The notes: generated by a model from the letters alone, not told the origin. A DNA stretch of 32,000 bases from Candidatus Iainarchaeum sp. (GCA_016205145.1 JACQJH010000001.1:390001-422000), one strand, 5' to 3'; counted from the first letter of the stretch, positions 1 to 30,944 are shown. Numbers and translations: made by a program.

Positions 1-169
1 GCAATTGGGAGTTCAAGTTTTTTAAATATTTTGTTTTTTGTGTCCTCGCTACAAAATTCGAGCAAATTTATGAGTGATTTGGTGACATTATTTTCAATTT
101 GATAATCTATTTTGTTCTTATTAGATGACTGGCTGCGATAGTAAAAGAAGATGTTTTGGTGCGGATCTT

Positions 170-820
170 TCATTTTTTTATCATCATTGAATTTTCATTA
201 TTTTTCATGCGTATTTTTTTTGTATTTGGATATTTGCCGTTGTGGTCAAGAATATATTCGAATTCCTTGAACCACTGTGTTTCTTGTTGATTTCTCCAGA
301 GTTCTAGTTCCTTGTTTCTAATGTTGATTTTAGTGCCATTTACAAATTCTCTTAGCGCATGGCAGTATGCGATGTACTGCGTTTCATCATTAGTATTAGT
401 CAGCGTGTCTTGAAAGTAGGCAACTATTCTGAAGTCAAAAACAGCGTATTTGTCTGGCAATTTGAATGCAAGTATTGCAGATAGCATTGGCAGATTAATG
501 CCTTTGGCCCCTTCTCGTTTAAGTTCCAGAAGTGCCGCTTTTATTTTTTTACGTTCAATATCTGCGCTTAAATTAGATTCTTTTAGGTCGGCCAGTAATT
601 TATTCAATATGGTAGTGTGTTTATCTTTATCAAAATGACGGCGAATTCGTGGGGATTTCCAGTTTGCTATTGCCTTAAGCTGTATATGGGTAAGTTCGCT
701 ATTGACAATTTTTTTGGAGGCTTCTAACTGAGAGTCCCTCTTTTGAACGGGCTCTTTTAGACACACTAAAATTTTTTTGGTGATTTCTTGCAACTCGGCG
801 GGTTCGTCCATTTTGTTCAC
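170..820 (-). CDS. hypothetical protein, last gene of the CARF-nuclease operon; possible helix-hairpin-helix-like segment
   Basis: 216-aa ORF that starts 7 nt after the stop of the upstream gene on the same strand. It is the most AT-rich part of the window. The segment GINLPMLSAILAFKLPDKYAVFDFR resembles the KGIGQQTLSQFLVAKDPSKFPLI segment of the neighbouring protein. No catalytic motif recognised. Confidence 0.55.
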   Translation of the reverse strand: MNKMDEPAELQEITKKILVCLKEPVQKRDSQLEASKKIVNSELTHIQLKAIANWKSPRIRRHFDKDKHTTILNKLLADLKESNLSADIERKKIKAALLELKREGAKGINLPMLSAILAFKLPDKYAVFDFRIVAYFQDTLTNTNDETQYIAYCHALREFVNGTKINIRNKELELWRNQQETQWFKEFEYILDHNGKYPNTKKIRMKNNENSMMIKK

Positions 821-827
821 ATTCTTG

Positions 828-1892
828 CTATTTTTCCTGCGTTGTTTGGTTTGTGTGTTTGTCGTTTATTTCAAATTTGACTTTGTAGTATTTTAGGCTT
901 ATTTGGTTTTCCACCGGCATTATAGCATAGTCGAGCCTGTTGTCCGGCTCGTTTGTGATTATTATTGCCCTCGCGTTTTCTGATTTGTTCTTTTTTATCC
1001 AGCCCAGGTATCTGAGGGTTTGCCCGACGACTTCGTCGCTTGACCGGCCTTTTTTGAGTTCTATTATGACTTGTTTGCCTTTTTGGTCTTTGCATAGCAG
1101 GTCTATTTTTCCGACTTCTTTTGTGTTGAATTCTTTTTCCGTTAATTGCAGTCCTTTTTCTATCAAATGCGGGTTTTTTGCGAGGTATTCTTTCAGGTCT
1201 TTTTCCAATGAGATTGACGAGTAGTTTTCGAGGATTTCTTCCGGCATTTCAGGGTTTGCGGATTTTTTGCCAAACCATATGAGGTTGTTTACCGACGTGT
1301 ATTTTTCGGTTCCGAGCAGGTTTTTGATTTCTTCGAAAATTATGAAGTTTGTCAGGTAGTCTATTGTTCTGTCCAAGTACTTTGTCGGGTCATCAATGTT
1401 AAAGTGGCGCATTGCCAGTTCATAGGCTTTTTCTTCCTGTTGGGGGCCCAGGTTGAGGGCTTCGGTTGTTTGCCAGGTTATCAGGGGAAATTTTGACGGG
1501 TCTTTGGCGACCAAAAATTGGGAGAGCGTTTGCTGGCCAATTCCTTTGAGCTTAAAGAATTCGTTGACCCTGTTGACAAAGTCGGTTTCGTTTCCAAACA
1601 AAAGCGCGCGCAGTTTTTCGTTGAATTGTTCCAAGCCATTTTCCCGGTATAAAAGGTTTGAAAGCGCCCTGTTGTTGGAAAAATTTCTCATTAAATGAAA
1701 AATCGTGTCAAAATCTTCCGAAGCCAAGTTGTTTCCGGAATCAAAGTTTTTGTCATTGAATATTTTGCTTATTTCCTGTTCTGCCTTGTCTTCCTCGGCT
1801 TTCCACAGCATTGCCTTTTCGGTTTGAAGGCTTTCATTCCATGCCCGCAATTTGTCTATTTGCTCTTCGTAAAAAATTTCACTCACAACCAA
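828..1892 (-). CDS. NucS/DUF91-type PD-(D/E)xK nuclease domain protein with an unknown N-terminal domain of about 220 aa
   Basis: The C-terminal ~115 aa (about nt 873-1220) read SLEKDLKEYLAKNPHLIEKGLQL..EVGKIDLLCKDQKGKQVIIELKKGRSSDEVVGQTLRYLGWI..ARAIIITNE. This matches the hallmark G-x-iDLl...D..g..vviElK...QlxRY pattern of NucS C-terminal / DUF91 restriction-endonuclease-fold domains. It starts 12 nt after the stop of the CARF-wHTH gene. Confidence 0.7.
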   Translation of the reverse strand: MVVSEIFYEEQIDKLRAWNESLQTEKAMLWKAEEDKAEQEISKIFNDKNFDSGNNLASEDFDTIFHLMRNFSNNRALSNLLYRENGLEQFNEKLRALLFGNETDFVNRVNEFFKLKGIGQQTLSQFLVAKDPSKFPLITWQTTEALNLGPQQEEKAYELAMRHFNIDDPTKYLDRTIDYLTNFIIFEEIKNLLGTEKYTSVNNLIWFGKKSANPEMPEEILENYSSISLEKDLKEYLAKNPHLIEKGLQLTEKEFNTKEVGKIDLLCKDQKGKQVIIELKKGRSSDEVVGQTLRYLGWIKKNKSENARAIIITNEPDNRLDYAIMPVENQISLKYYKVKFEINDKHTNQTTQEK

Positions 1893-1904
1893 TCACCTGA
1901 AAGT

Positions 1905-2519
1905 TCACATTCTCGCAATCTTTCCCGCGTCCGTCAGCTTGAATCCTTTTCCGTCTTCTGTTTCTTCGATGAAGCCTCGTTGTTTCAGTTCTTTTAGGTT
2001 GCGGTAGACCATTGCCTTGCTTTGTTCGGTTTCTTTGGCGAGGTCTGCGGGGATGTCGTGTTTTTCGGCTTCTTCGAGGATTTCCTGTTGGCCTGTGGAG
2101 AGGTCGAAGTTGAGTGTGGGCAGGGTTATTATGTCTTTGAATTCGTTTGGCTTGGTTTGGTCTGCCACGTAGACGATTTTTTTTACGCGTGTGCTTCTTG
2201 CGTAGGCGCCGAATAGTGCGCCCAAAGCCTGTGTTTTGCGGCCGTGGGTCACATTCACAAAGATTTCGTCGGTGTTTGCGAGTGCGTCGATGATGTTTGC
2301 GGTGTCCTGTGCTACCGCGACGATGTCGAATAGTTCAACCCTTTTTTCCTTGATTTCGATGACTTTTTCGAATGTTTTTTTGAGGTCGTCGACGGCTTTT
2401 TGCTGTGTTTCATCGGGCTTTTTGTCGATTAGAAGGAACAGGCGGTCGATGGAGAATTTGGTTAAAAGGAGGACGATTGAGTCGGAGGAATAGGCCGTTG
2501 TTATGAGAACCCTTGCCAT
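1905..2519 (-). CDS. Csa3-like regulator: N-terminal CARF-type Rossmann-like domain plus C-terminal winged HTH
   Basis: The layout is MARVLITTAYSSDS..RLFLLIDKK (strand-loop-helix start), then IFVNVTHGRKTQALGALFGAYA (DxTHG-like motif followed by a helix), then a C-terminal wHTH (LSTGQQEILEEA..MVYRNLKELKQRGFIEETEDGKGFKLTDAGK). The ORF is open to 2582. I chose ATG 2519 because a T/A box (gaatttaaaagg, about 2538-2549) lies 20-30 nt upstream of it. Confidence 0.6.
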   Translation of the reverse strand: MARVLITTAYSSDSIVLLLTKFSIDRLFLLIDKKPDETQQKAVDDLKKTFEKVIEIKEKRVELFDIVAVAQDTANIIDALANTDEIFVNVTHGRKTQALGALFGAYARSTRVKKIVYVADQTKPNEFKDIITLPTLNFDLSTGQQEILEEAEKHDIPADLAKETEQSKAMVYRNLKELKQRGFIEETEDGKGFKLTDAGKIARM

Positions 2520-2586
2520 ATCAGGGTTAAAATCGGAAGAATTTAAAAGGTTGCCAGAACAATCCACTGCAATACCCGCCAATACA

Positions 2587-2610
2587 ATAGTATACTTTAT
2601 AGTATACTTT
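2587..2610. promoter_or_regulatory. tandem 12-bp direct repeat ATAGTATACTTT x2, each copy containing the 8-bp palindrome AGTATACT, in the divergent promoter; candidate operator
   Basis: Read directly: caATAGTATACTTTATAGTATACTTTtataagg. The palindromes are at 2589-2596 and 2601-2608. The repeat abuts a TATA-like ttTATAAgg box about 45 nt upstream of the AAA+ start codon. Confidence 0.4.
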
Positions 2611-2659
2611 TATAAGGTGTTTGCGACACGTTTTTTGTTTGTTTTTGTGGTGTTGCGTT

Positions 2660-3823
2660 ATGGTGTCGCAGTCGATGAAACCGCCTGAAGACCTTTTTGG
2701 CGGCGAGGAGATTTCGTGTGACTTGTGCGGGCGGATTATTCCGCCGAATGAGCGTTATTTTGCTTTTACTCTTGGCTTGGAGTATTATTCTTTGAACGGG
2801 GACGGGGCGGAAGTGGAGCCCGTTGACGTGTTTGCCGACAAGACTTTTTGTTTGAATTGTTCCAAGCGGAACGGCACCAATCGGAAATTTAACGCGCTTA
2901 AAAAAAATGCCGGTCCCGAGGTTTCGGTTAACGGGCCCAGTGACCCGCGTTTTGAAAGGCTTGGGGTTGACGGTGATGGCCTTGGCAATATTGGCGTTGA
3001 AGTTGTGCCGTCCAAGGGTTTGGATGACGTTGTTTTGACTCCGAACACGAGGAAAGGCGTTGAACTGGCTTTGGCGCATGTGAGGAATGCCGGAAAGCTC
3101 ATGGCGGATTGGGGTTTGGGTGAAAAATTTTCTTATGGCAATGCCTTGGCTTTGAGTTTTGTGGGATTGCCTGGAACGGGCAAAACTTTGTGCGCGGAGG
3201 CCTTGGCGAAAGAGGCCGGCAAGAAATTGCTGGTTGCCAATGCTTCGCAATTGTTGAATTGTTTTGTCGGCGGCACCGAGAAAAGGATTTCGGCGTTGTT
3301 TGAGCGGGCTTCCAAGTCGGATTGTGTCCTGTTTTTTGATGAGGCCGATTCTTTGGCTTCTACGCGTGTCAGCGTTCAACTGGGCAATGACAGGTATGCG
3401 AACAGTGAAACCAATGTTTTGTTGCAGGAGCTTGAAAAGTTCAGGGGCATAGTCGTTTTTTCGTCTAACATGGCGGGAAATTTTGACCCGGCCTTTGAGA
3501 GAAGGATTGGCTTGCATGTCTTGTTTGAGTTTCCGGGTAAAAGGGAGCGCGTGGAATTGTTCAAAAAACTGGTTCCAAAAAAAATGCCGTTGGCTAAAGG
3601 CGTTTGCTTTGAGGAACTGGCAAAGGAAAAGTTTTCGGGCGGCGACATCAAAAATGTTATAATCAATGCGGCGAGGCTGTGTGTGAGCAACTCAAAGTCC
3701 AAGGTTTCACAGGCCCATTTCGTGGAAGCCGTTGAAATCGTGAAAAATAACAGGAAAAACTCGGGTTTTTTGTTGGGCGCGGAACCTGAAGCAAAATTCA
3801 GGCGGCATTGTTTTGTGAGCTGA
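2660..3823 (+). CDS. AAA+ ATPase (classic clade, SpoVK/COG0464-like) with an N-terminal CxxC...CxxC zinc ribbon
   Basis: Walker A GLPGTGKT (nt 3164-3187), Walker B VLFFDEAD, sensor-1 VVFSSN and Arg finger FERR are present. The N-terminal part carries CDLC...CLNC (nt 2717-2860). The track ORF begins at 2621. ATG 2660 (MVSQSMKPPE) is preferred because it avoids a Cys/Leu/Phe-rich leader. Confidence 0.85.
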   Translation: MVSQSMKPPEDLFGGEEISCDLCGRIIPPNERYFAFTLGLEYYSLNGDGAEVEPVDVFADKTFCLNCSKRNGTNRKFNALKKNAGPEVSVNGPSDPRFERLGVDGDGLGNIGVEVVPSKGLDDVVLTPNTRKGVELALAHVRNAGKLMADWGLGEKFSYGNALALSFVGLPGTGKTLCAEALAKEAGKKLLVANASQLLNCFVGGTEKRISALFERASKSDCVLFFDEADSLASTRVSVQLGNDRYANSETNVLLQELEKFRGIVVFSSNMAGNFDPAFERRIGLHVLFEFPGKRERVELFKKLVPKKMPLAKGVCFEELAKEKFSGGDIKNVIINAARLCVSNSKSKVSQAHFVEAVEIVKNNRKNSGFLLGAEPEAKFRRHCFVS

Positions 3824-3833
3824 GGCGGTTTTT

Positions 3834-4109
3834 GTGGGCAAACGCTTGTTGGATTGCGTGAAAAAAGGCGAAGTCATTGAAATCAACAGCAAGCCTTACG
3901 GGTTCGGGCTTTACGGGTTCGTCAAGGATGAGCTGATAATGCTTGCCGATAAGGGTTTGGCAACCGAGCAGGAAGTCATGTCTGTGCGGATTGGCTTCGT
4001 TTGCGGGAATTGCAAAAGGCACGTCATTCGGAACGTGGCTGACATTCATTTGTTTTTGAGCCAGGCGTGCGGCGAAAAATGTTCCAAGGCGCTTGACAGA
4101 ATAAGGTAA
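3834..4109 (+). CDS. small hypothetical protein with a putative zinc-binding CxxC...CxxxC motif
   Basis: 91-aa ORF with a GTG start 8 nt after a GAGG Shine-Dalgarno-like element that overlaps the AAA+ stop codon. It contains CGNC...CGEKC. Its stop overlaps the next start as TAATG at 4107-4111. Confidence 0.45.
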   Translation: MGKRLLDCVKKGEVIEINSKPYGFGLYGFVKDELIMLADKGLATEQEVMSVRIGFVCGNCKRHVIRNVADIHLFLSQACGEKCSKALDRIR

Positions 4110-4498
4110 TGAGCACAATTGCGGCTAATGTTGCGGCAATCGCAGGGCGTGGTGGCAAAATGAAAAGAAAATTGAAGTCGCCTGAGGATGTGAGGGCTGA
4201 GTTGCAGCTGCTCAAATACCTGCTTGACGCGCTTAACCAGATAGGGGAATTGGAGGGCAGTTTGAGGCATTATAAGAATCACATTGACTTAGACGGCTAT
4301 CTTGCGGGGAAAAGCGAGGCGTCTGAACTGCGGTTTTTGCGGTTCGAGGATAACAAGGACACTCTTGAGCGGTTGTATGAGGAGGTTGAACTTGAATTGC
4401 GGGGCAGGCTGAGCGATTTTGTTGAAGCGCGCCTTGGCGAGTTGGCTGCACAGGAAAAGAAGTGGAAAAAAGTTCGTCGAACGAAAAAATCGGGGTGA
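4109..4498 (+). CDS. hypothetical charged, probably coiled-coil protein
   Basis: 129-aa ORF with an ATG start translationally coupled to the upstream ORF (TAATG). It is rich in E, L, K and R with heptad-like stretches. No recognised motif. Confidence 0.5.
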   Translation: MSTIAANVAAIAGRGGKMKRKLKSPEDVRAELQLLKYLLDALNQIGELEGSLRHYKNHIDLDGYLAGKSEASELRFLRFEDNKDTLERLYEEVELELRGRLSDFVEARLGELAAQEKKWKKVRRTKKSG

Positions 4499-4512
4499 AA
4501 TGCGTGCAACCA

Positions 4513-4662
4513 ATGTTTTCGTTTAAAGGCTCGAAAAGCCAGCGGAAGGCGTTTTGTCTGCTGGCCCAGGAATATGGTTTGTCCGGCAAAAAACTTGCCG
4601 AGTTCAGCGAACTGGATAAAATCGTTTTTCAGAATGTCAAGGTTTTTGCGAAAAGCATTTGA
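4513..4662 (+). CDS. possible small ORF (49 aa from ATG 4513, or 66 aa from ATG 4462)
   Basis: It fills the gap between neighbouring ORFs in the same operon. It is short, has no motif and its start is uncertain. Confidence 0.25.
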   Translation: MFSFKGSKSQRKAFCLLAQEYGLSGKKLAEFSELDKIVFQNVKVFAKSI

Positions 4663-4686
4663 GGTGATTTTACGGAAAAGGTCAAA

Positions 4687-5124
4687 GTGGCGTCAAAAAA
4701 GGAACTGAAAAAACTGAACGGGCGGCTTTTGAAGAGGGCGAAAAAGGCTGTAAACCAAAAAATGGTTTCCAAGTGGAGAAGTGAACTCAGGCCTGTTGCC
4801 AGGGGAATCGGAATGCATGTCATTGACCAATTTTATCTTGAAAACCTTGTTGACGAGTCTTTCGCCGCAGGGTTTCTCGAGGCTTTTCACGGAAACAAGA
4901 AATCGGCGGAAAAAGAGCTGCGGAAAAAGAGGATTATGCCAACCGCGGTTGAAACCGCAAAATACGGCATAGACGAAGACTATTGTGTGGAATTCGCCAA
5001 AAAGTTCAAAGGGAAAAGAAAGGATTTCATCAACGCTCTCAAAAAAGAGGGAAAACAGTCACTGGCAATCGCAATAGGACATTTTGAAAAGTACGGCGAA
5101 GCGCCGGACATGGAGTATGATTAA
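4687..5124 (+). CDS. hypothetical protein
   Basis: 145-aa ORF with a GTG start and a lysine-rich N-terminus followed by a globular-looking region. Same strand and tight spacing as the other operon genes. No recognised motif. Confidence 0.45.
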   Translation: MASKKELKKLNGRLLKRAKKAVNQKMVSKWRSELRPVARGIGMHVIDQFYLENLVDESFAAGFLEAFHGNKKSAEKELRKKRIMPTAVETAKYGIDEDYCVEFAKKFKGKRKDFINALKKEGKQSLAIAIGHFEKYGEAPDMEYD

Positions 5125-5135
5125 GAAACTCAATT

Positions 5136-5666
5136 GTGGGTGAAAGATTGGTGGAATTGTCGGAATTGGCAGTTGAACCGCCGAAGGACTGGACAGCCGA
5201 GTTTTTGACGCCTAAAAACAGCCTGGTTGCGGGCGCGGTTGGCTGGATGTGCAAAAATTGTGCAAAACCTTGGTGCGTGAAGTGCGGCGCATCCGTTCTT
5301 TGTCTTATCTGTCAGGGCGGGGATTACGTTCATTTGTGCGCGGATTGCGCGAAAAGCAGGCTTCACAAGTGCGTTCGTTGTAACGGCAAAGCCGAACCGT
5401 TCAAAATGTCCATACGGCCTTTTATGTGCGTCAATGCCGTGCTTTGCTCGAAGTGCAGGAAGGCTTTCAAAAACAAGTGCTATTCGTGCGGAACTAGGCT
5501 GCCAAGCAAATGCGGTTTTGTCATCCACGATTTTTTGAAAAAGGGCACAAAAATTTATCTGATGAAAGGCAAGTCCGGCAGAATCAAAAAACTGGCACAA
5601 AACGCGCTGCAGGTTTACAGTTGGAGAAGAACAATCTTCCCGCAGTTTCCAAAAAGTTCACATTAA
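5136..5666 (+). CDS. cysteine-rich multi-zinc-finger protein with seven CxxC pairs
   Basis: There are 16 Cys in total. Between nt 5250 and 5489 they form CKNC, CVKC, CLIC, CADC, CVRC, CSKC and CYSC. The C-terminus is basic. The start is GTG 5136, or alternatively ATG 5247 (MCKNC). Confidence 0.55.
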   Translation: MGERLVELSELAVEPPKDWTAEFLTPKNSLVAGAVGWMCKNCAKPWCVKCGASVLCLICQGGDYVHLCADCAKSRLHKCVRCNGKAEPFKMSIRPFMCVNAVLCSKCRKAFKNKCYSCGTRLPSKCGFVIHDFLKKGTKIYLMKGKSGRIKKLAQNALQVYSWRRTIFPQFPKSSH

Positions 5667-5701
5667 AAGTTTTGTTCCGCATTTGTGGCAGTAATTTTGT
5701 T

Positions 5702-7306
5702 TTAAATGTACCCGAACCCGGCAAGCCTGTTTTTCACGGCTTCCTCGCCTTCCTCGTCGAACGCGCTTTCCGTGGAATGCACTTTCGCCTTTCCTTCCCC
5801 CGCTTTTCCGGCTTTCGCCTGCTCCGCGTTTTCGAGTATCGGCAGGCATTTCCCGTCTATGCCATCCGGGACCGGAAGGCCGAACAACTGCAGGATTGTC
5901 GGCATGACGTCGAACAGCCTTGCCTTCGCCAATCCAGGGTTTTTCTTTATGCCGTGCCCTGCGGCAATGAAAATAGCGTCGCGCGTGTGGTTGCCTTCGA
6001 TTGGCCCGAGCTTTTCCTCGATTATGGGCACGTTGCCTGTTTTCATTGAAACAAGGTATGGCTTTTCAAATTCCACGAACAGGTCGGGGATGCTTTCAAG
6101 GAACGGCCCCCAGTACAGCTCTTCTTTCAAATGCACTTTTTTGACCTTGCCTTTCAGTTCCGGCGCGTTCATTATGGTTTCGCAAACCTTTTTCCTGAAC
6201 TCTTCGAATTCTTCCCTTGAAACCGTGCCCTGCGGTTCCCTGCCTTTGAGGTTCAAGCGCACTTCGCCTCCCCGCCCGGCGCAGAAAACCTTTGTCTTCG
6301 GCCAGTCGGCGTTCGAGGTTTCATAGCTTTTTTCGCGCAAAAACTTTTCCAGCTTTTTCGGCATCTTGAATGGCAGAATGTTCACGAGCTTCTGCGCCTT
6401 CGAGCGCAAACCGAGCCGTGCAATAGTCGTTATCAGGCTTCTGACCGGGTCGAACCTTTTCTTGGTTTTGAACAGCCCGTTTTTTTCGAACAGCCTGTTC
6501 AGGTAAACCATTCCGTATTGCGGGCCGAAGCCGTGGTCGGATACAATGAAAACAGCGGTGTTTTCGCCGCATTCGTCAACAAGCTTTTTGGTTTCGGCTT
6601 CAGCCTTCTGATAGAATTCAATCACTTTTTCCTCAAAGCCGGACTGGTAGTTGGGATGCTTTTTGTCGAGGAAGCTTGCATAATTGTGGTGCATTTCCTC
6701 GGTTTCGGTTATCGCCAGGAACAAAAAGTCCCAGTGGAACTGTTCAATGAAAATCTTCGCGGCCTCAAATCGTTTCAGCATTGTGTCGACGTTTTCCTCG
6801 AAAAAGCCGGCTTCTTTTCGGACGGTTTTTTCCGGCAGGATCTTGTAGCCGATTTTGTCAAGCTTTTCCCTGAAATTTTTCGGGTAAGTGTAATCGGCGA
6901 GCGGCGGAGTGAGGAAATCAGTGACCATTATTCCGTTGAGCTTGTGCGCCGGGTATGTGAGGGGCAGGTTTATGATTCCGACGACCTTGTTGTTTTCGGA
7001 CAGTATGTCGTACAGCTTTTCGCCGTGTATGTGCGTTGAATCCGGAATGAAGTTTTCGTAGCTGTTTGCTTTCTCGATTTGTATGCCGTAGATGCCGTGC
7101 TTTCCGGGGTTGTTGCCCGTAACAATCGAGGTCCATCCGTTCATGCTGTGCGGCGGAAAGTTCGCTTCGAGTTCGCAGAAAACGCCTTCATCGCAGAGCT
7201 TTTTGAAATACGGCAGTTTTCCCTCGGCAAACCATTTTTTCATCACCGAATGGCGCGCGCCATCCAGGCCGACAACTACAATTCTCTGCTTTTTCATTTC
7301 AACCAT
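5702..7306 (-). CDS. alkaline-phosphatase-superfamily enzyme, type I phosphodiesterase / nucleotide pyrophosphatase family
   Basis: It has IVVVGLDGARHSVM (metal-binding Asp region), FPPHSMNGWTSIVTGNNPGKHGIYG (nucleophile region), FIVSDHGFGP and GNHTRDAIFIAAGHG. No signal peptide or TM segment is visible. Confidence 0.8.
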   Translation of the reverse strand: MVEMKKQRIVVVGLDGARHSVMKKWFAEGKLPYFKKLCDEGVFCELEANFPPHSMNGWTSIVTGNNPGKHGIYGIQIEKANSYENFIPDSTHIHGEKLYDILSENNKVVGIINLPLTYPAHKLNGIMVTDFLTPPLADYTYPKNFREKLDKIGYKILPEKTVRKEAGFFEENVDTMLKRFEAAKIFIEQFHWDFLFLAITETEEMHHNYASFLDKKHPNYQSGFEEKVIEFYQKAEAETKKLVDECGENTAVFIVSDHGFGPQYGMVYLNRLFEKNGLFKTKKRFDPVRSLITTIARLGLRSKAQKLVNILPFKMPKKLEKFLREKSYETSNADWPKTKVFCAGRGGEVRLNLKGREPQGTVSREEFEEFRKKVCETIMNAPELKGKVKKVHLKEELYWGPFLESIPDLFVEFEKPYLVSMKTGNVPIIEEKLGPIEGNHTRDAIFIAAGHGIKKNPGLAKARLFDVMPTILQLFGLPVPDGIDGKCLPILENAEQAKAGKAGEGKAKVHSTESAFDEEGEEAVKNRLAGFGYI

Positions 7307-7351
7307 GGTTTTCGATTATTGAACCAACCGGCTTTTTTGCCTTTCCAAAAA

Positions 7352-8887
7352 ATGATTAATCCAAAGCTTTTTTTAGCTATGCAAAGTAAAGCTCTTCTGG
7401 TGCAGTCCGAAAAGTTACTGTTGAAAATCTTTGCGGCCGTTGCGGCTCTTGCCGTAATCGTCAGGCTGTTTTCGATCGCAATCGTTCCCGTTGCGGCTTA
7501 CAGCGATTCCGTTTTCCATTTGCAGCTGGCGCAGGCGATTGTTGCGGGAGCAGGCATAGACCAGGGCCTCGGTTTTCCACCGCCGTTCTTCCACGTCTTT
7601 GCCGCGGTCTTTTCGGTTGTTTCGGGTTTCAGCCTGAACTCGGAGGCGGTGAGGGTTATACCGCTTGTTTTCTCGCTTGCCTTCCTTCTTTCCGCTTTCG
7701 TTTTTTTCAGGCGCTTTTTTTCCTCTAAGCCATTGCTTTGCCTTGCGGCTTTTTCCTTTGTCGCAGCCCAGCCTTTGCTGGTGCGTTACGGTTCCATAAA
7801 CTATGTCGACGGGCCGGCCGCAATGTTCGTTCTGCTCTCGTTCTTTTTCCTTTTCGAATTCCAGAAAACCGGTTCCAAAAGTTTTTTGGCAATGCTTTTG
7901 CTTTCGTCCGTTGCATTGGCGGTGACGAAGCTTAACTCGGCTGTAATCCTGCCGGCGATTGTCATGGGCCTCGCATGGGCTGCATTTTCACGAAAGCGTG
8001 GCTTGGCTTCGCTTGCGGTTTTCGTTGTTCTGCTTGCATTTTTTTCCTCGGCCTGGTTTGCCCTGAATTTCGCAGAGACCGGCTCGTTTGACCCGCAGTT
8101 GCAGCGCAACATCGACCTCGCCGAACAGGGAACCATTGTGAGGGCGAACGCGTTCGAGCGCATTCTTTCATTGCCTGCTTTCCTCTGGGATTTTGTGCAG
8201 CCTGACGCGTTCGCAAGGCTCCCTTTTCCAGGCGCGACTTATGGAATGGCGTTTGCGTTGTTTTCTCTGCTTGCCCTTGCGTCGCTTTTGTTCATCGCTT
8301 TCGGTTTTTCCGGTCTTTTCCGCATGAAAAATGCGCTTTTCCTGCCGCTGCTTGCAGCGTTGGTGCTTGCAATTGTTCCGCTCGCCGGCCGCAACTTTGA
8401 CGCGCGCATCGCGATTCCCTTCCTGCCGCTGCTTGCCTTGCCTTTCGGTTTCGCGTTTGAAAAATTTTCAAGGCAAAAGGCCTTGCCTTTTTTTGCGCTC
8501 GCATTCGCCTTGCTTTCATTGTATGGCGTGGCTTATGCCGGCGCCACTTCGGTTTATTTCAAACAGGCGTATGATTCGGAAATGCCCGCGTATTCCTTCA
8601 TGAAAGGCCTGCCGGATGATGCCAAGGTTTATTCGTGGAACAGGCACCGCGCAGTCATGTTTTATTCGGGCAAAAACTCGGACTTCGACCTTGACAATGT
8701 CAACGAGAATGACCCGGAAGCGGTTTTTGCAGTGCTTTCCGGAAAAGGCTATTCGCACCTGTTCATCAGCTGTAATGAGCGCGCGTTTCCAGACCTAACC
8801 ATTTCGGCGCTGTCCGGCGGCGGCAAAATGGGCATTGTTTTCAGTGACGGATGTTCCAGAATATTTAAGATAAACTACGGGACATGA
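7352..8887 (+). CDS. polytopic membrane protein, probable GT-C fold glycosyltransferase (ArnT/PMT-like) with a C-terminal soluble domain
   Basis: More than 10 hydrophobic segments are followed by a soluble tail of about 110 aa. The first loop (AAYSDSVFHLQLAQAIVAGAGID) resembles PMT_2/ArnT-type proteins. The track ORF starts at 7079 but overlaps the phosphodiesterase gene. In-frame ATGs occur at 7352 and 7379. Confidence 0.55.
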   Translation: MINPKLFLAMQSKALLVQSEKLLLKIFAAVAALAVIVRLFSIAIVPVAAYSDSVFHLQLAQAIVAGAGIDQGLGFPPPFFHVFAAVFSVVSGFSLNSEAVRVIPLVFSLAFLLSAFVFFRRFFSSKPLLCLAAFSFVAAQPLLVRYGSINYVDGPAAMFVLLSFFFLFEFQKTGSKSFLAMLLLSSVALAVTKLNSAVILPAIVMGLAWAAFSRKRGLASLAVFVVLLAFFSSAWFALNFAETGSFDPQLQRNIDLAEQGTIVRANAFERILSLPAFLWDFVQPDAFARLPFPGATYGMAFALFSLLALASLLFIAFGFSGLFRMKNALFLPLLAALVLAIVPLAGRNFDARIAIPFLPLLALPFGFAFEKFSRQKALPFFALAFALLSLYGVAYAGATSVYFKQAYDSEMPAYSFMKGLPDDAKVYSWNRHRAVMFYSGKNSDFDLDNVNENDPEAVFAVLSGKGYSHLFISCNERAFPDLTISALSGGGKMGIVFSDGCSRIFKINYGT

Positions 8888-8917
8888 TTCTTAAAAGGAA
8901 AAATTTGGGGTTTGCGC

Positions 8918-9874
8918 ATGGACAAAAAGACGATTTTTTTGTACGCTGTCGGCCTGCTGTCATTGGCCGCGGTTTTTTCGGTTTTCAACGTCGACCTGAA
9001 GGTTTTTTTCTCAGTGAAGCCCGAATGGCTGGCTTTGCCGATACTGATTTCTGTGCTGCTTGTCGTTGTTTACGCGTGGCGCACGAAATTCCTGCTGCTT
9101 GCATTGGGCCACAAGGCGTTTTCGTTTGCCGACCTGGTGAAAATAGAGTTCGTGAACAAGCTTGTGCTGCAGACCGCGCCCGCAAAGCTGAACATTCCCG
9201 CGAAGGCGATAATGCTTGTCAAAAAATGCGGCATCCCGAGGAATGACGCGCTGTCGGTTTCGGCTTTCGAGCATTTTTTGGACCTGTTTGTCCTCCTGGC
9301 GCTGGGAGTCTTCGGTTTTTTTGTTTTTGCGCCGATTTCCTCGCATTACTCTGCCAACATCGGCATTGCCACGGCGGCACTTGTTTTTGTTTCAATGGGC
9401 TTTTTTGTTTTGCCTGCGGGGTTTTATGATTTTTTGACAGCCAAAACGGATTTCCTGCGCAAGCGCAGGTTTTTGGGCCTTGCCAACATTGCTTTGGTTT
9501 ACATCAGGGAAATGCGGCGCGCATGGCTTGACCTGGTTTTGCACAGGCACATGTTTATTGTGATTCCGATTGTGCTGGCTTACATTGCCCTGAACGCCAT
9601 CGCAATAAAGCTGCTTTTCCTTTCAATAGGCCACAACATCGCCTTCGGTTATATTGTGGCGGCTTTCGCGATAACGCGGCTTTTCAGCGGCATTTCTAAC
9701 ATTCCGGGCGGATTCGGCATAAGGGAGGCATCGTTCGTCATACTGTTCGGCTTTGTCGGCATTCCATCCGACGCGTCCTTTTTTGTAGCAATCGCATGGC
9801 GTGCAATTGGAACACTGCCGTTGCTTTTGTCTTATCCGATAATGCTTGAAATGGGCCTCAAGAAATTCGATTAG
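8918..9874 (+). CDS. flippase-like membrane protein (UPF0104 / lysyl-phosphatidylglycerol-synthase TM-region family)
   Basis: It has about 8 TM segments and the characteristic C-terminal motif IPGGFGIREASFVILFG. ATG is at 8918; the track uses TTG 8912. Confidence 0.7.
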   Translation: MDKKTIFLYAVGLLSLAAVFSVFNVDLKVFFSVKPEWLALPILISVLLVVVYAWRTKFLLLALGHKAFSFADLVKIEFVNKLVLQTAPAKLNIPAKAIMLVKKCGIPRNDALSVSAFEHFLDLFVLLALGVFGFFVFAPISSHYSANIGIATAALVFVSMGFFVLPAGFYDFLTAKTDFLRKRRFLGLANIALVYIREMRRAWLDLVLHRHMFIVIPIVLAYIALNAIAIKLLFLSIGHNIAFGYIVAAFAITRLFSGISNIPGGFGIREASFVILFGFVGIPSDASFFVAIAWRAIGTLPLLLSYPIMLEMGLKKFD

Positions 9875-11015
9875 GCCGTTGCGGGTGCTTTTTCTTTGCA
9901 ATGGCGGCGTAAACGGCAACTGTTTCTTTTGCCTTGATTTTCCACGAATTTTTTTTCGCGCGCCTTTTGCCTTCCGCGCCGAGCCTTTGCGCAAGCTTTT
10001 TGTCTTTGAGGGCCTTGATGACCAGTGATGCGAACCCTTCAATGTCATCCGGCTTTGCAAGCAACGCCGAATCTCCGAGAATTTTGCGCACTTCCGCAAA
10101 GTCAAAGCTCACGGTCGGCCTGCCGGCGGCCATGTATTCGAACAGCTTGACCGGGCACCACCAGAAGCCCAGCTGTTTCATCTGCGGGAAATTATTCAAT
10201 GAAAACGGCGCAATGCAGACATCGGCCGCTGAAAGCAGACGCGGAATTTTTTCATGCGCAACGCCTTTCATGAAGACAAAATTTTTTTGCAGGCCTTTCA
10301 TTTCAACCGCTTGGAGGGTTTTTTCACGTTCCCTTCCGTCGCCAGCCATCACAAAAACAGTTCCGGGGCATTCAGCAAGGACTTTTTCCGCTATTTCCGG
10401 CACGATGCCTGCTCCGTGCCATTCCCTGAAAGAGCCGGCGAATGCGACAATGTTTTTTGCGCGCCGGCCGATTTTTTTCCTCTCGCCTGCGGCCTTGCTT
10501 TTCGGAACCGCGAAGTCTTCCGGCTCGACGCCGTTTGAAACCACGAAAACCTGTTTTTTTGCCTGCTTTTGAAGGATTTTTTTCAGAGTTCCGGTCTGCG
10601 TGATGATGGCGTCGGCGGAATCCAGCTTTGCCGCAATCATCGGCGCGAACACGATCCTTTTCACGCCATTCCACGTTTCAATGCCAGGATCGTTGACTTC
10701 TAGCACGTGCACGGCTCCGGAGCCTTTTGTAAGAAGAAGCGTCTGCGGGTTCACAGAATAGCGTTCGTGTATGACATCGAAGCCCTGCAGAAATTTTTTG
10801 AGCTGCCGCAATTGCGCAATTCTTTTCAAGGGATTTTTGTGCAGGCGCAATTCGTGCACTTTGACTTTGTTGAGCGCGGTTTTTTTCCCGGCCTGCGTGA
10901 AAAGCTCGACTTCATTGCCTGCCGTGGAGAGCGCCTCGCACATTTTTGCGGAATGCGTGAAGCCCGCGTCTCTTCCGCCCAGACTTTCCGAGAGCGCAAG
11001 ATAGGCTATTCTCAT
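9858..11015 (-). CDS. glycosyltransferase, GT4 family (GT-B fold)
   Basis: It begins MRIAYLALSESLGGRDAGFTHS, and its C-terminal domain has a GT-B-type EX7E-like region (VKLFEYMAAGRPTV). It overlaps the upstream GT4 gene by 4 nt (ATGA). Confidence 0.85.
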   Translation of the reverse strand: MRIAYLALSESLGGRDAGFTHSAKMCEALSTAGNEVELFTQAGKKTALNKVKVHELRLHKNPLKRIAQLRQLKKFLQGFDVIHERYSVNPQTLLLTKGSGAVHVLEVNDPGIETWNGVKRIVFAPMIAAKLDSADAIITQTGTLKKILQKQAKKQVFVVSNGVEPEDFAVPKSKAAGERKKIGRRAKNIVAFAGSFREWHGAGIVPEIAEKVLAECPGTVFVMAGDGREREKTLQAVEMKGLQKNFVFMKGVAHEKIPRLLSAADVCIAPFSLNNFPQMKQLGFWWCPVKLFEYMAAGRPTVSFDFAEVRKILGDSALLAKPDDIEGFASLVIKALKDKKLAQRLGAEGKRRAKKNSWKIKAKETVAVYAAIAKKKHPQRPNRIS

Positions 11016-12136
11016 TCCGCCACTTCCGAATAAAGTTTCACAAGTTTGCCGATGTTTTTTTCTATTGAGTATTCTTGCGCCTTTTTTTCCGCGTTTTTCA
11101 CGATTTTTTGCTTTTCCATTGCGGGCTTGCGCGCAATTTCAGAGATTTTCCGCGCGGTTTTTTTTGCGTCCGAAAAATCCGCGATGAAACCGCTTTTCCC
11201 GTCTTCAACGATTTTTTCAAAGCTCGGAATCCTGTTGACTATAGGAATGCAGCCTGCCGCCATCGCCTCGGCAAGGGAAATGCCGAAGCCCTCGTATTCG
11301 GAGGCGGAAACGAAGAATTCTGATTTGCCGAGCCTTTGCAGCAGCTCTTTTTCGGAGAGGCTTCCGTCGAAGAAAACGTTTTTTTCAAGGCCGGCTTCAA
11401 CCGCCTGCCTGGCCAGCTTTTCCTGCAGGTCATCGAAATCGCCGCCGCACACGTGCAGGCTCAGGCCGGGAAGGCTTTTTTTTGCCTCGGCAAACGCTTC
11501 AAGCAGCCTGTCGACGCGCTTGTTTTTGGAGAGCCTGCCCACGAAAACGAAAGAGTTTTTCCTTTTCCGGCCGCTGAGCGCGAAAAACTTTTCAAGGCTC
11601 ACGCTGTTTTCGAGCAGGCGGATTTTTTTTGCGGGCACGATTTTTGAGAAAAGCCTTTCGTCGTTTTCGCTTACCGCAATGATTCTGCCGGCGCGCTTCA
11701 GCAGGATTTTCTGGAACGCGTTGAAATAAACCTTTTTTGCAATGCCCATGCTTTTGGTGTGGAATATGCCGCCGTGCGTTGAAACAACGACCGGCTTTTT
11801 GTGCAACGGCTTTGACAGCAATGCGAAATCCGAGAAGAAGCCGAGGCCGTGCACGTGCAAAATATCCGGGTTTTCCCTTTTGATTGCCTTGAGCAGGCCG
11901 AAAGCCGGCTTGTAGTATTTTAGGTCCGCAAACCCGAGCCTGATTATTTTTGTCCTGCCAAGCGTTTCCTCCGCTTTCAGTTTTTTCTTTTCTTTCGGGC
12001 ACCTGTTGAGGCAGGCCACAACGCATTCAATGCCGTTTTCCGCGAGCGCATTACATGTGTCCAGAACAACTTTTTCCACGCCGCCCGTGCAGGGCCAGAA
12101 ATGGTGCGTCAAATGCATTATTTTGAGCTTTTTCAT
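11012..12136 (-). CDS. glycosyltransferase, GT4 family
   Basis: It begins MKKLKIMHLTHHFWPCTGGVEKVV and has SEYEGFGISLAEAMAAGCIPIV, the EX7E motif of retaining GT-B enzymes. Confidence 0.85.
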   Translation of the reverse strand: MKKLKIMHLTHHFWPCTGGVEKVVLDTCNALAENGIECVVACLNRCPKEKKKLKAEETLGRTKIIRLGFADLKYYKPAFGLLKAIKRENPDILHVHGLGFFSDFALLSKPLHKKPVVVSTHGGIFHTKSMGIAKKVYFNAFQKILLKRAGRIIAVSENDERLFSKIVPAKKIRLLENSVSLEKFFALSGRKRKNSFVFVGRLSKNKRVDRLLEAFAEAKKSLPGLSLHVCGGDFDDLQEKLARQAVEAGLEKNVFFDGSLSEKELLQRLGKSEFFVSASEYEGFGISLAEAMAAGCIPIVNRIPSFEKIVEDGKSGFIADFSDAKKTARKISEIARKPAMEKQKIVKNAEKKAQEYSIEKNIGKLVKLYSEVAE

Positions 12137-12145
12137 GTGGCAGCC

Positions 12146-13159
12146 TCATGTCGGGCGCTTTAGCACCAGCCCGTAAAATCCGTAAAGCAGTCCAAGCGAG
12201 AAGACTATGCTGCGCAATGCGAGAAGGAACGGCGTGAGCACGCCAAGCATTGGATCCTTCGCCATCACTTTGCCCGTGAGCTTGACGCACGCCAGCAGGA
12301 ACGCCAATGCAAGAACAATCGAGAATTGTACCAACAGTTTTGCTTCCGCGCGAAACCCGAACGCCATCGCTAAAAAGAGCAATGCCAGCGCCGGAAAAGC
12401 CGCATATGCTATGATGATCTGCGCTTTCAGGCTCTGCCGCGTGTAGGAATCTTTCACCATCTTGATCCTGTGCTTCTTGTAAAGCAATATCCGCCAGTAG
12501 GCGCGGAAAAACTTTGTTTTCAGGTAATCTTTCAGGGTTTCCGGGTGTTTGTGGTAGACAACTGCCTTTGGCGCGAACACAAGCCTTTTGCCGAAAGAGG
12601 CGAGGCCGTATGAAAGGTCGGTGTCCTCGCCGGAGGATGTCCTGAACTCCTCGTTGAAGCCGCCGAATTCCAAAAAGATTTTTTTCCTGTACGCCGCGGA
12701 ATAGCTGCCAATGAAGTCAATGCTTTCCTTTTTAGCCATGAGGTCGTAGCGGTCCTCTATTTCAAGTTGCGTGAACCTCGCCATCAGGCTTTTCTGCCTT
12801 GTCCTGTACCTGCCCTGCACTCCCGCCACGCCCGGGTTGGAAAAGGGCTTCAGCATTTCATCGAGCCAGTTTTTTTCGGCAACGCAGTCAGCATCGACAA
12901 AAACCAGCACTTCCCCTTTCGCGTTCCTTGCGCCCATGTTTCTGGCAGCAGCCGGGCCGCGGTGCCTTTGCTCCAGGATGCGGACATTTTTTCCCAACGA
13001 TTTGGCAATTTCGATTGTCCTGTCCGTGCTCCCGTCGTCGGCGAGGATGACTTCAAAGCTTTTGCCGGTTTCCTGGCCAAGCAATGATTGAAGGCATTCC
13101 GCAATGCTTTTTTCCTCGTTGCATGCCGGCACTATGACGCTTGCGTCCATGGGAAACAT
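12146..13159 (-). CDS. membrane-anchored glycosyltransferase, GT2 family
   Basis: The GT-A signature is VIVPACNEEKSIAECLQSLLGQ..EVILADDGSTDRT..VFVDADC. Three to four C-terminal TM helices follow. Confidence 0.85.
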   Translation of the reverse strand: MFPMDASVIVPACNEEKSIAECLQSLLGQETGKSFEVILADDGSTDRTIEIAKSLGKNVRILEQRHRGPAAARNMGARNAKGEVLVFVDADCVAEKNWLDEMLKPFSNPGVAGVQGRYRTRQKSLMARFTQLEIEDRYDLMAKKESIDFIGSYSAAYRKKIFLEFGGFNEEFRTSSGEDTDLSYGLASFGKRLVFAPKAVVYHKHPETLKDYLKTKFFRAYWRILLYKKHRIKMVKDSYTRQSLKAQIIIAYAAFPALALLFLAMAFGFRAEAKLLVQFSIVLALAFLLACVKLTGKVMAKDPMLGVLTPFLLALRSIVFSLGLLYGFYGLVLKRPT

Positions 13160-13260
13160 TTAGGCATTTGCTTGTTTTAAATTGTATTTGTTTTCCGTTC
13201 CCGGCGTTGGTACAATTTCCGCTTTTACGTGTTTTTGGGCACTGCTGGCAAAAAATCAGG

Positions 13261-14772
13261 TCAGATGTTGTGCGCCTTTTCGAACATGCCTTCCGGCAGG
13301 GTCGTATCCCTGTTCAACAGATACTTGAAGAACGTCTGCCCGGACTTGAATAGCCTGGGGAATTCCTTCGGGTGCGTGATGCCCTGGATTATTTTTCGCG
13401 CAATGTAAGTTGGCCTCAAATAAAATTCCCTTCTCGCCTCGTCGCACGCCTTGACAAGCTCTTTCGCGCTCAATGCGGGCGTCGAAACGATCGTATTGTG
13501 CGAGCCGTCAGGCAAAAGCCATTCGTTCCAGTTTGTCGTGGTCAGGTAGCCGTTGTTCTTGGCCCACTCGTATGCTTCAGTTCCGGGATAAACCATGAGC
13601 GGGAAAAACTGCGCAGTATCGGGGTCCAGTTCTTTTGCGAACTGCACGGTCTTTTTGATTGTCTCCTTTGTCTCGCCGTGGTTGCCCATCATGAAGCAGC
13701 CGTGAACCAGGATGCCAGCCTTTTTCGAGTCCTTGACGAACTGCCTGATCTTCGGCACGACGGTGCCCTTCTTGATGTTGTTGAGTATCTGCTGTTCCGC
13801 GCTTTCAAAGCCCACGCACATGAGCCTGCATCCGGCTTTCTTCATCCAGTCAAGGGTTTCGAAATCGACATCCGCCCTCGAATTGCAGGTCCACGTCACT
13901 TTCAGGCCCCTGTTTACGATTTCCATGCACACTTCCTTTGTCCTCTGCGTGTCCTGCGTCAGGGTGTCGTCCTCGATCATTACGTCCTTTACCTGGGGCA
14001 GATTCTTTGTTATCCATTCGAGCTCGTCGACAAAGTTTTTCGGGCTCCTTGCCCTGTAATTGTGGCCTGTGAGTGTTTGCGGCCACTTGCAGAAAGTGCA
14101 CCTGTACTTGCAGCCCCTGCCGCTGACAATCGTCACTTCAGGGAAGAGCACTGAAGGGTAAAAATAATCCTCGATTTTCAAAAAGCGTTTGTAAATTTCG
14201 CTGACGAACGGCAGTCCGTCCAATTCTTCCGGCGTCATTTCCGGCATCGGCGCGTTGAGCCGGAATTCGCCTTTCTCCATGAATCCTATGCCCTTCACTG
14301 TTTTCCATTCCCCGGATTCCTTTCCGCCGTTTTCAAGCGCCCCCGCGATTTCGCGCGTGATGATGTCGAATTCGTTGGTTGAAACCGCGTCGATTGCCTT
14401 GCACGCCATCAGCGATTCTTTCGGCATGGCTGAAGTGTGCGTTCCCACCATGAGGATGAACGAGTCCGGGAATTCTTCGCGCATTTTTTCCGCCACTTTC
14501 GCGTCGTTGAAGAACGAGGCAGTGACCGTTTCAATGACAATCATGTTCGGCCTGAATTCCTTTGCGGCCGTGAGCACCTCTTCCGGCGATGTCGGCTTTG
14601 CGGGCGCGTCAATCAGCAGATAGTCTGTGCCGGCTTTTTCCAGAACGCAGGCAGTGTAACCGAGCCAGATGGGATAATAGACGCAGCCGCCCTTTGAGAC
14701 CGCGGGGCTGCGGCTGTCCTTGGAAAATTTCGGAAAGAACGGCGGGTTCAGCAAAAGCACTCTGGTTTTCAT
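13261..14772 (-). CDS. B12-binding-domain radical SAM enzyme (class B type)
   Basis: The N-terminal Rossmann-like cobalamin-binding region is VLLLNPPFF..YPIWLGYTACVLEKAG..MIVIETVT. The radical SAM cluster motif CKYRCTFC (CX3CX2C) lies at nt 14089-14112, which I verified by reverse-complementing the sequence. Confidence 0.85.
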   Translation of the reverse strand: MKTRVLLLNPPFFPKFSKDSRSPAVSKGGCVYYPIWLGYTACVLEKAGTDYLLIDAPAKPTSPEEVLTAAKEFRPNMIVIETVTASFFNDAKVAEKMREEFPDSFILMVGTHTSAMPKESLMACKAIDAVSTNEFDIITREIAGALENGGKESGEWKTVKGIGFMEKGEFRLNAPMPEMTPEELDGLPFVSEIYKRFLKIEDYFYPSVLFPEVTIVSGRGCKYRCTFCKWPQTLTGHNYRARSPKNFVDELEWITKNLPQVKDVMIEDDTLTQDTQRTKEVCMEIVNRGLKVTWTCNSRADVDFETLDWMKKAGCRLMCVGFESAEQQILNNIKKGTVVPKIRQFVKDSKKAGILVHGCFMMGNHGETKETIKKTVQFAKELDPDTAQFFPLMVYPGTEAYEWAKNNGYLTTTNWNEWLLPDGSHNTIVSTPALSAKELVKACDEARREFYLRPTYIARKIIQGITHPKEFPRLFKSGQTFFKYLLNRDTTLPEGMFEKAHNI

Positions 14773-14894
14773 CGCATCAGCCTTGACGGTAAATAATCAT
14801 GCTTTCTTTTTAACTGTTTTCTGGTGCAAAACCCAAATAAAATATGAAGCACAATTCATATAAAAGGTTTTGTCTTCCGTCTGCGGCTCATGGC

Positions 14895-29999: not shown

Positions 30000-30104
30000 G
30001 AGTAAGCCTTTCATGAATTAAAATGATGTTTCGCCAGCACCCGCTTGCGGTTCCGATTTTTGTGCATGGAAAAGCTTTTTTACCGGTTAAACGTAATCTT
30101 GTGC

Positions 30105-30833: not shown

Positions 30834-30914
30834 AACGGATAATTTGTAAACGTGCCTGTTTTTGAAATCAAAAAAAGCGCAAGGCAGCGATTCGTAAATT
30901 TGATTTTTGTTTTT

Positions 30915-30943: not shown

Positions 30944-30944
30944 T

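Follow-up and report, generated by a model that had tools for sequence, protein, structure and literature searches.

IetA is reported to be the antitoxin ATPase of a system that acts in plasmid stabilisation and anti-phage defence; its mechanism is unknown, and variants bearing a helicase exist (PMC13069673). In the Sulfolobales, Csa3 proteins bind cyclic tetra-adenylate (cA4) and their target promoters are marked by palindromic motifs (PMC8699464, PMC8844856), with the Csa3a and Csa3b operons controlling cas and DNA-repair genes. A third type of system, the CARF/Csx3-AAA fusions, comprises accessories of type III CRISPR-Cas found mainly in cyanobacteria (clusters 35 and 67 of Shah et al. 2018; PMC6546367). 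In DPANN archaea few defence systems are recognised and there are many uncharacterised candidate genes (PMC12988326). Here we describe a locus in which a Csa3-like regulator and a distant relative of IetA are encoded back to back, in a 32,000-nucleotide stretch (the window) of Candidatus Iainarchaeum sp. (GCA_016205145.1 JACQJH010000001.1:390001-422000). The source is a Candidatus Diapherotrites metagenome-assembled genome, a member of the DPANN, which are archaea with small genomes.

The locus has features in common with each of these systems, and there are informative departures. Like IetA, the window ATPase is a single-domain classic AAA+ protein in a mobile or defence context with fast-changing partners, but it has a different N-terminus (a zinc ribbon), an archaeal host and a Csa3-like regulator as its pair, and none of the five downstream and three upstream proteins matches a model of IetS, the subtilisin-like protease of IetAS. 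With the Sulfolobales Csa3a and Csa3b operons it shares a regulator with CARF and winged helix-turn-helix (wHTH) domains, divergent placement and a palindromic promoter motif, whereas in the window, which shows no CRISPR-Cas, the regulator faces an AAA+ ATPase and relative-less small proteins, and the host phylum is CRISPR-poor (PMC12988326). The CARF/Csx3-AAA fusions, which we liken to it by description, also place an AAA ATPase under CARF-type ligand control, but the domains are fused there, and in the window a separate Csa3-like protein would exert control at the level of transcription. We propose that the locus belongs to the accessory or defence gene pool of DPANN and encodes a Csa3-gated AAA+ unfoldase module of IetA-like type, whose partners evolve fast and are lineage-specific, and give this reading a probability of about 0.5. 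If it is right, CARF signalling gains a protein-unfolding output beyond nucleic-acid cleavage or the control of cas genes, and the pairing of Csa3-like and IetA-like proteins provides a handle on the mechanism of IetA-type ATPases; a coincidental pairing would make it just another accessory island with relative-less genes.

A six-gene operon and its AAA+ ATPase

Six open reading frames (ORFs), all on the plus strand, span positions 2660-5666 (Table 1), and this six-gene block is a genuine operon. The original prediction, which was made from the DNA alone, described them as co-directional and closely spaced, and they are: in operon order the spacing is 10 nt, -1 nt, an overlap (o129/o55), 24 nt and 11 nt. 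The GAGG that it placed before the GTG at 3834 is present at 3822-3825, upstream of o91, as is the TAATG at 4107-4111 that forms the o91/o129 junction. Five of the six ORFs are called by two independent pipelines (PGAP and Logan) with differing starts, the fourth being uncalled, and the window has 100% identity with three Logan assemblies. In a coding test based on codon-usage log-likelihood and trained on the long host genes of the window, the score peaks in its own frame for every operon ORF, with a tie with the antisense frame for o55 and its longer form o66; the values are 0.13-0.31, compared with 0.42-0.58 for the host genes, which are their own training set. The ATPase has an identical entry at NCBI under the name '26S protease regulatory subunit', and the small proteins (locus tags HY394_01905 to HY394_01920) are all annotated 'hypothetical protein'.

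Table 1. Features of the ATPase operon, its control region and the adjoining divergent genes.
Feature	Position	Strand	Remarks
NucS_C / PD-(D/E)XK-domain protein	828-1892	-	PF01939, E 6.9e-17; after the Csa3-like gene
Csa3-family CARF and winged-HTH regulator	1905-2519	-	204 aa; divergent from the operon
Divergent control region	2520-2659	.	140 bp; regulator start taken as 2519
Candidate operator	2587-2610	.	Perfect tandem 12-nt repeat, ATAGTATACTTT x2
ATPase ORF	2660-3823	+	387 aa from ATG
N-terminal four-Cys zinc ribbon of the ATPase	2717-2860	+	C20xxC23 ... C64xxC67, with a long beta-hairpin insert
Pore-loop 1 of the ATPase	3260-3274	+	C-F-V-G-G; F-V-G = residues 202-204
C-terminal tail of the ATPase	3806-3820	+	[FY]-[VI]-[SAG], here FVS; conserved
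o91	3834-4109	+	91 aa, or 83 aa with a GTG 3858 start
o129	4109-4498	+	129 aa (PGAP version 112 aa); start overlaps the o91 stop
o55	4495-4662	+	Alternative starts 4462 (66 aa) and 4513
o145	4687-5124	+	145 aa
o176	5136-5666	+	171-176 aa

The ATPase is the only operon product recognised by family scans, and it has a complete AAA+ core behind a CxxC...CxxC ribbon, both in agreement with the original prediction. In a Pfam scan PF00004 gives E 1.3e-24 and 87.5 bits (cutoff 21.2), and AAA_lid_3 is just sub-threshold (25.3 bits, cutoff 27.2), with an SGGDIKN lid motif present. Walker A (GLPGTGKT, residues 169-176), Walker B (VLFFDEAD, 223-230), sensor-1 (N270) and the Arg fingers of the second region of homology (R281/R282) are all found, and the catalytic residues are invariant across an alignment of ten homologues. 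The pore loop is conserved in the same alignment, as an aromatic residue followed by Gly two positions on, and the protein is probably a substrate-threading member of the classic AAA+ clade.

The placement of the ATPase among known families is informative in two ways. First, the best matches are of diverse kinds: the top profile is phrog_3757 in PHROGs, of unknown function (E 9e-44), the best defence profiles are PADLOC IetA (E 4e-32) and NCBIfam IteA (E 8e-29), which align to residues ~110-380, and the nearest matches in the PDB are p97/Cdc48 D2 and VAT modules (E ~1e-35). Second, every curated equivalog cutoff is missed widely, and the ATPase therefore lies outside all of the named families. 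The IteA equivalog (NF042959) scores 100.8 bits against a cutoff of 510, the PAN model (TIGR01242) 86.9 against 500, Pan1 and Pan2 63-68 against 700-750, and Cdc48 82 against 803, with the PAN, Cdc48 and FtsH models together at 82-91 against 500-800. The label 'SpoVK-type' given to it in the original prediction is wrong, as TIGR02881 scores 18 bits against 423, the lowest among 14 AAA models. The IetA match reflects the AAA core common to both proteins, and by these comparisons the nearest kin of the ATPase are the p97 D2 domain, the IetA-like proteins and the 'orphan' AAA proteins of phages and plasmids. The phrog_3757-type relatives are 33-39% identical to it and occur in Moraxella phage Mcat5 and on cyanobacterial, Lactobacillus and actinobacterial plasmids, where they are often the last genes in operons of small hypothetical genes. 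Unlike the window protein they have no zinc ribbon and no Csa3-like neighbour in the loci examined, and many of the bacterial members have a hydrophobic tail resembling a membrane anchor.

The NCBI name and the closeness of the p97, Cdc48 and VAT structures are what a housekeeping proteostasis ATPase would lead us to expect, either proteasome-associated or PAN/Cdc48-like, with the small genes unrelated to it. The similarity to Cdc48/p97 D2, VAT, PAN and FtsH is of the 30-35% type in the AAA core and extends to all core motifs and the SGGDIKN lid motif; moreover, the aromatic C-terminal tail is conserved (FVS, FVA, FVA, YVG, YVG and YIG in archaeal relatives), and a sister ATPase group, P0007/P0011, is encoded beside ribosomal-protein and repair genes (see below). 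However, the tail is not an HbYX motif, as the penultimate residue is V or I rather than Y, there is one AAA domain, and the PAN, Cdc48 and FtsH scores given above are a small part of their cutoffs. The N-terminal position is taken by a rare zinc ribbon, with the N-domains of Cdc48/PAN-type families (coiled-coil/OB and double-psi-barrel) undetected by family scans. Full-length relatives are very rare, and the gene is of atypical composition and tightly coupled to small unrelated ORFs. We consider a housekeeping role highly improbable.

The Csa3-like regulator and the divergent control region

The gene divergent from the operon encodes a protein that passes the TIGR01884 cas_HTH model (83.3 bits, cutoff 60.2) and matches PADLOC CARF3 (E 4.5e-60) and Pfam HFX_2341_N (E 3.6e-14). 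Its N-V-T-H-G-R-K motif (N-x-[TS]-x-G-R) and its wHTH are kept in homologues at two other archaeal loci, L028 and L040 (see below), and in a Csa3 of the Methanomethylovorans plasmid pMETHO01. A 'CARF-nuclease operon' sharing a 140-bp control region with the ATPase operon had been proposed; the region has this length if the regulator starts at 2519, and the supposed CARF-nuclease is two genes, one Csa3-like and one encoding a NucS_C/PD-(D/E)XK protein. The pMETHO01 homologue is 40.5% identical to the window regulator and is divergent from an operon of hypothetical, TPR and UvrD/PDDEXK genes, which suggests that this regulator subfamily may govern varied conflict-type cargo.

Within the control region each direction has a TATA-like box, which is TTTATAA (2609-2615) for the operon and TATAAA (~2596-2601) on the minus strand, and we infer that these are the promoters of the divergent units. 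The candidate operator is composed of two copies of ATAGTATACTTT, each containing the 8-bp palindrome AGTATACT, and both TATA-like boxes adjoin or overlap the repeats. The motif is confined to this site, with four strand-matches in the window compared with 0.26 expected. The orthologous intergenic region of L028 has a perfect 16-bp palindrome, AGTATAATATTATACT, with identical half-sites, and the more distant L040 carries GTCTA-N9-TAGAC. It is reasonable to suppose that the 2587-2610 site serves to repress or activate both divergent units.

Recurrence of the regulator and ATPase pair

Full-length, ribbon-bearing relatives of the ATPase are rare (P0002-P0005; 41-50% identity), being found on a few metagenomic contigs and representing ~5 lineages in 5.8 billion protein clusters. 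Among 185,579 species genomes scanned there are 80 loci with matches to the AAA core only (34-43% identity), mostly bacterial (many of them Myxococcota) with two in DPANN; the ribbon region is unmatched by tblastn in all 80, and the ribbons of the L040 ATPase were found on inspection. A metagenome scan with an ATPase-specific segment returned known loci only, L129 (the same as L003) and L130 (on one contig with L009). Two of the 80 loci, L028 (Woesearchaeota) and L040 (Micrarchaeota), have a Csa3-like gene, and in both it is divergently upstream of the ATPase-containing operon; the regulators are 44% and 31% identical to that of the window, respectively. The upstream regulators of L004 and L138 were also considered and are not Csa3-like.

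The surroundings of these homologues are rich in genes of conflict systems. In L040 (WY4.bin88) positions 1184-15716 form a compact defence island that includes S and M genes of a type I restriction-modification system, the Csa3-like gene, two AAA+ genes, AbiU/AIPR, a GajB-like UvrD-PDDEXK gene, a gene for a 209-aa protein of unknown function and a PIWI/pAgo gene. The neighbours in L028 include a Cas4-like PDDEXK protein; a 469-aa protein, weakly matched by a pAgo model, with a homologue in the L004 island; an ORF of 280 aa that by eye resembles Bro-N proteins; and a predicted toxin-antitoxin pair. Close to the full-length relatives are genes for Bro-N, NikA-like ribbon-helix-helix (RHH), GGACT and UDG-like proteins and UvrD-PDDEXK helicase-nucleases, together with a PIN toxin gene whose adjoining small ORF we read as an antitoxin. 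Orthologous proteins with a UvrD helicase and a PD-(D/E)XK domain (L003:3459-6119, L004:6205-8412 and L040:10444-13122(-); 48-55% identical and GajB-like in PADLOC) are encoded within a few kb of an ATPase homologue in three lineages, and a more distant relative is encoded after the Csa3 gene on pMETHO01; there is no UvrD-PDDEXK helicase in the window.

With the exception of an o55 homologue in L003, the small ORFs downstream in L003, L004, L010, L028 and L040 are unrelated to those of the window, so the six genes together do not form a conserved system. The link with the CARF gene suggested in the original prediction is supported by the divergent pairing, which recurs in L028 and L040, but a system of all six genes is not; conservation of the small ORFs in relatives, on which it had made its reading depend, is found for o55 alone. 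Judged by what recurs, the conserved core is a Csa3-family CARF-wHTH regulator and a divergent IetA-like classic AAA+ ATPase.

A toxin-antitoxin or addiction module similar to IetAS has to be weighed at this point, in which the ATPase, as antitoxin or chaperone, would continuously neutralise a toxic small protein (e.g. o176) that is released on infection or loss of the locus. The best defence-model matches of the ATPase are to IetA, the downstream genes are variable and fast-evolving, and the UvrD-PDDEXK helicases beside the archaeal homologues in L003, L004 and L040 are reminiscent of the helicase-bearing IetA variants (PMC13069673). Nonetheless, family scans reveal neither an S8 protease (IetS) nor a recognisable toxin domain, the IteA equivalog score is 100.8 against 510, and the window is without a helicase, such that we regard a module of this type as quite improbable.

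The zinc ribbon of the ATPase

The four Cys, G24, I27, E31 and Y33 of the ribbon are invariant in five full-length relatives, and the signature can be written as C-x2-C-G-x2-I-x3-E-x-[YF] ... C-x2-C. An AlphaFold2 model built from a shallow alignment has two zinc knuckles bridged by a long beta hairpin, with a mean predicted local distance difference test (pLDDT) score of 61.6, and a Foldseek search with it against the PDB gave no significant match, only weak ones to ribosomal zinc-ribbon proteins (best E 0.045). Because of the low pLDDT and the weak matches, we assign no fold beyond a zinc ribbon with a beta hairpin. The ribbon is not restricted to the ATPases. Stand-alone ribbon proteins of about 120-130 aa are encoded at L003:6151-6519(-) and L010:130-516(+), and at L003:6642-7067(+) the ribbon is fused to a NikA-like RHH domain. 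In the L040 ATPase (L040:6359-7777(+)) the N-terminal ribbon is followed by a second Cys-rich, ribbon-like stretch. A hidden Markov model of the ribbon was run on o91 and o176 and detected neither. The ribbon shared by the ATPase, the stand-alone proteins and the RHH fusion is apparently an undescribed small domain family of these islands, uncharacterised so far.

The small proteins

Each of the five has a basic pI (8.9-9.7), and two of them have Cys patterns suitable for zinc binding, as had been noted from the DNA. The first is o176, with sixteen Cys arranged as seven CxxC motifs and two single Cys; seven or more CxxC occur in 7 of 100,000 composition-preserving shuffles, so the number is non-random, and o176 is a predicted multi-zinc protein. 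An AlphaFold2 model of o176 made from the single sequence has a pLDDT of 31.7 and was set aside. The second is o91, which ends in a zinc-finger-like CxxC-x18-CxxxC. The o129 protein is without Cys, and o145 is Lys-rich.

Profile searches and searches of PDB sequences agree with the earlier view that the small ORFs are unlike known families. None of the five matches a family in Pfam (E up to 10) or in PHROGs, PADLOC or NCBIfam (E up to 0.01), and searches of o91, o129, o145 and o176 against PDB sequences gave nothing below E 0.08. TIR and Rx_N matches of o145 in the family scans are at chance level and were dismissed. The 90%-identity clusters of these four proteins contain this locus alone; o91 and o129 have no relative in IMG/VR, o176 finds only itself in 5.8 billion protein clusters, and a full HMMER search with o145 of 1.84 billion representatives returned itself and one match at E 4.9e-5. 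This match (P0129) is a eukaryote-like protein with EF-hand repeats, and we judge the similarity to be chance inflated by the repeats. A 77-aa L003 protein in the equivalent position to o91 after the ATPase is not significantly similar to it (E 0.24-8.7).

The o55 protein is the only one of the small proteins with a homologue, yet it is the one uncalled by the gene callers. The homologue is a 56-aa gene (L003:1693-1863) two genes downstream of the ATPase relative, with 40% identity over 47 aa (blastp E 8.5e-7, tblastn E 1.3e-6). Of the possible starts, GTG 4495 forms a GTGA overlap with the o129 stop and yields 55 aa, and because of this overlap and the closeness in length to the homologue the fourth ORF most likely begins there.

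A proposed mechanism and the points against it

In the Csa3-gated module that we propose, a dimer of the Csa3-like protein would occupy the two AGTATACT palindromes that overlap the TATA-like boxes of both promoters, and a nucleotide ligand on the CARF domain would alter expression of the ATPase operon, for which cA4 and the Sulfolobales Csa3 proteins are the precedent. The ATPase ring would thread a protein substrate by means of its F-V-G pore loops, the zinc ribbon would pick the substrate, an adaptor or a nucleic-acid-bound target, and the [FY]-[VI]-[SAG] tail would dock a partner. The five small basic proteins, two of them predicted to bind zinc, would be adaptors, substrates or toxic effectors restrained by the ATPase; fast turnover of partners is usual in conflict systems. 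The regulation, ligand, substrate and biological role are those that we infer for such a module. A related proposal is that of an undescribed signal-gated defence or abortive module, in which the Csa3-type CARF regulator senses a nucleotide messenger and switches on the zinc-ribbon AAA+ unfoldase, and the unfoldase with its lineage-specific zinc-finger partners would dismantle viral or host protein or nucleoprotein targets, so that CARF signalling would end in protein remodelling and not in a nuclease; this we think unlikely.

Several observations weigh against the proposed module. The regulator and ATPase are paired in three independent instances only, and the P0004/P0005 lineage has a different wHTH protein upstream. 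A neighbour-joining tree joins the ribbon clade with L028 and L040, although it is rough and has no support values. The sister ATPases P0007/P0011 (in L135 and L136), which are single-domain proteins of about 390-400 aa with a different N-domain and a C-terminal NYIG, are in housekeeping-like surroundings without a Csa3 gene; their neighbours are genes for ribosomal proteins, EndoV and KsgA, the ribosomal-protein genes on these contigs are of archaeal type, and part of the ATPase clade may be chromosomal and housekeeping-like. The operon has no recognisable partner protease or nuclease effector, and the small ORFs, o55 apart, are without detected relatives, with the evidence for their function and for the expression of o55 being indirect and by prediction.

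There are also points against the regulatory part. Csa3a bound palindrome-bearing promoter DNA non-specifically in vitro and cA4 gave it no added DNA affinity (PMC8699464), and the precedent for sequence-specific, ligand-gated operator binding is less strong than the model takes it to be. In the 32 kb we see neither a CRISPR array nor cas10 or another cyclase, so there is no evident source of cyclic oligoadenylate, and DPANN are generally poor in CRISPR-Cas (PMC12988326). Finally, a second, very divergent Csa3-like CARF-wHTH protein is encoded at 16050-16682 (+) within a cell-surface glycosylation cluster; hhalign relates it to an alignment of the Csa3-like proteins (97%, E 4.6e-11) and it scores 26 bits with HFX_2341_N (cutoff 30). 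This paralogue indicates that the Csa3-like regulators of this genome are not defence-specific.

Composition and mobility of the left block

The left part of the window differs in composition from the rest. The GC content is 0.36 over 1-1000, 0.42-0.49 over 1001-6000 and 0.49-0.55 in the remainder, and GC skew is +0.23 to +0.29 over 2001-5000 compared with ~0 elsewhere. The operon has a lower GC content at third codon positions (GC3) and is depleted of third-position C (C3). Over 1905-5666 third-position G (G3) exceeds C on the plus strand in both divergent units, such that the minus-strand genes have C3 well above G3 and most of the plus-strand genes have G3 above C3, an effect not seen in neighbouring host genes. 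Because the G excess extends across both orientations it is strand-wide rather than linked to transcription, and together with the C3 depletion it makes the whole left block foreign-looking; its composition is mildly foreign. The block ends at a convergent phosphodiesterase gene, beyond which is the host N-glycosylation cluster.

An alternative explanation is that the block is the cargo or remnant of an integrated DPANN plasmid or virus, with the ATPase and small zinc-finger proteins being element genes for replication, remodelling or anti-defence, and the Csa3-like gene the element's own regulator. The atypical composition across ~1-5700 (GC 0.36-0.49, low GC3 and C3, and a distinct GC skew) is consistent with this, as are codon-usage scores for the operon below those of host genes and three assemblies that break at 1275-1952. 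Members of the ATPase family are frequent on plasmids and also occur in phages, with phrog_3757 as the best profile, and the full-length relatives are near Bro-N, NikA-like RHH, PIN toxin and antitoxin-like, and UvrD-PDDEXK genes. Basic, Cys-rich small proteins without relatives are typical of archaeal mobile elements, and we count them in favour of this explanation. On the other hand, no tRNA was found in the window, no integrase or hallmark domain of a virus or plasmid was matched among the ORFs scanned in it, and there is no bracketing att-like repeat around the operon within it. No capsid, replication or packaging gene is recognised, the best match in IMG/VR is 34% identical and restricted to the AAA core, and the L040 and L028 homologues are in chromosomal defence-island contexts. 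That the block might map to a known provirus family, a possibility raised with the original prediction, finds no support in these searches, and an integrated element, although possible, strikes us as doubtful.

At the left of the block the NucS-like protein matches PADLOC PDC-S02 (E 7e-20) and PDC-S11 (E 7e-18), a candidate single-gene defence family. A 28-nt direct repeat (815-842 and 1903-1930; 86% identical) brackets its gene exactly, each copy spanning a gene junction, and the GC content there is 0.36-0.42. In three independent assemblies with 100% identity to the window the sequence stops inside or at this gene, at 1275, 1463 and 1952. The NucS-like gene may have been inserted as a cassette, or it may be present in only part of the population.

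The rest of the window

A 36-nt tandem repeat at 30263-30343 (2.2 copies, 73% matches) is inside ORF 30045-30833, which has no Pfam match. A 5S rRNA gene is present at 30945-31061 (-) (67 bits in Rfam), and because ORF 30907-31749 (+) overlaps it, that ORF is probably spurious at the overlapping end. Most of the remainder (5702-29856) is a long host cluster for glycan synthesis with a type I phosphodiesterase, an LPG_synthase_TM protein, several GT1, GT2 and GT4 glycosyltransferases, a B12-binding radical SAM protein, a nucleotidyl transferase, two epimerase/dehydratases and a GT4-family (PF00953) transferase, and the gene at 27673-29856 encodes an AglB-like oligosaccharyltransferase.

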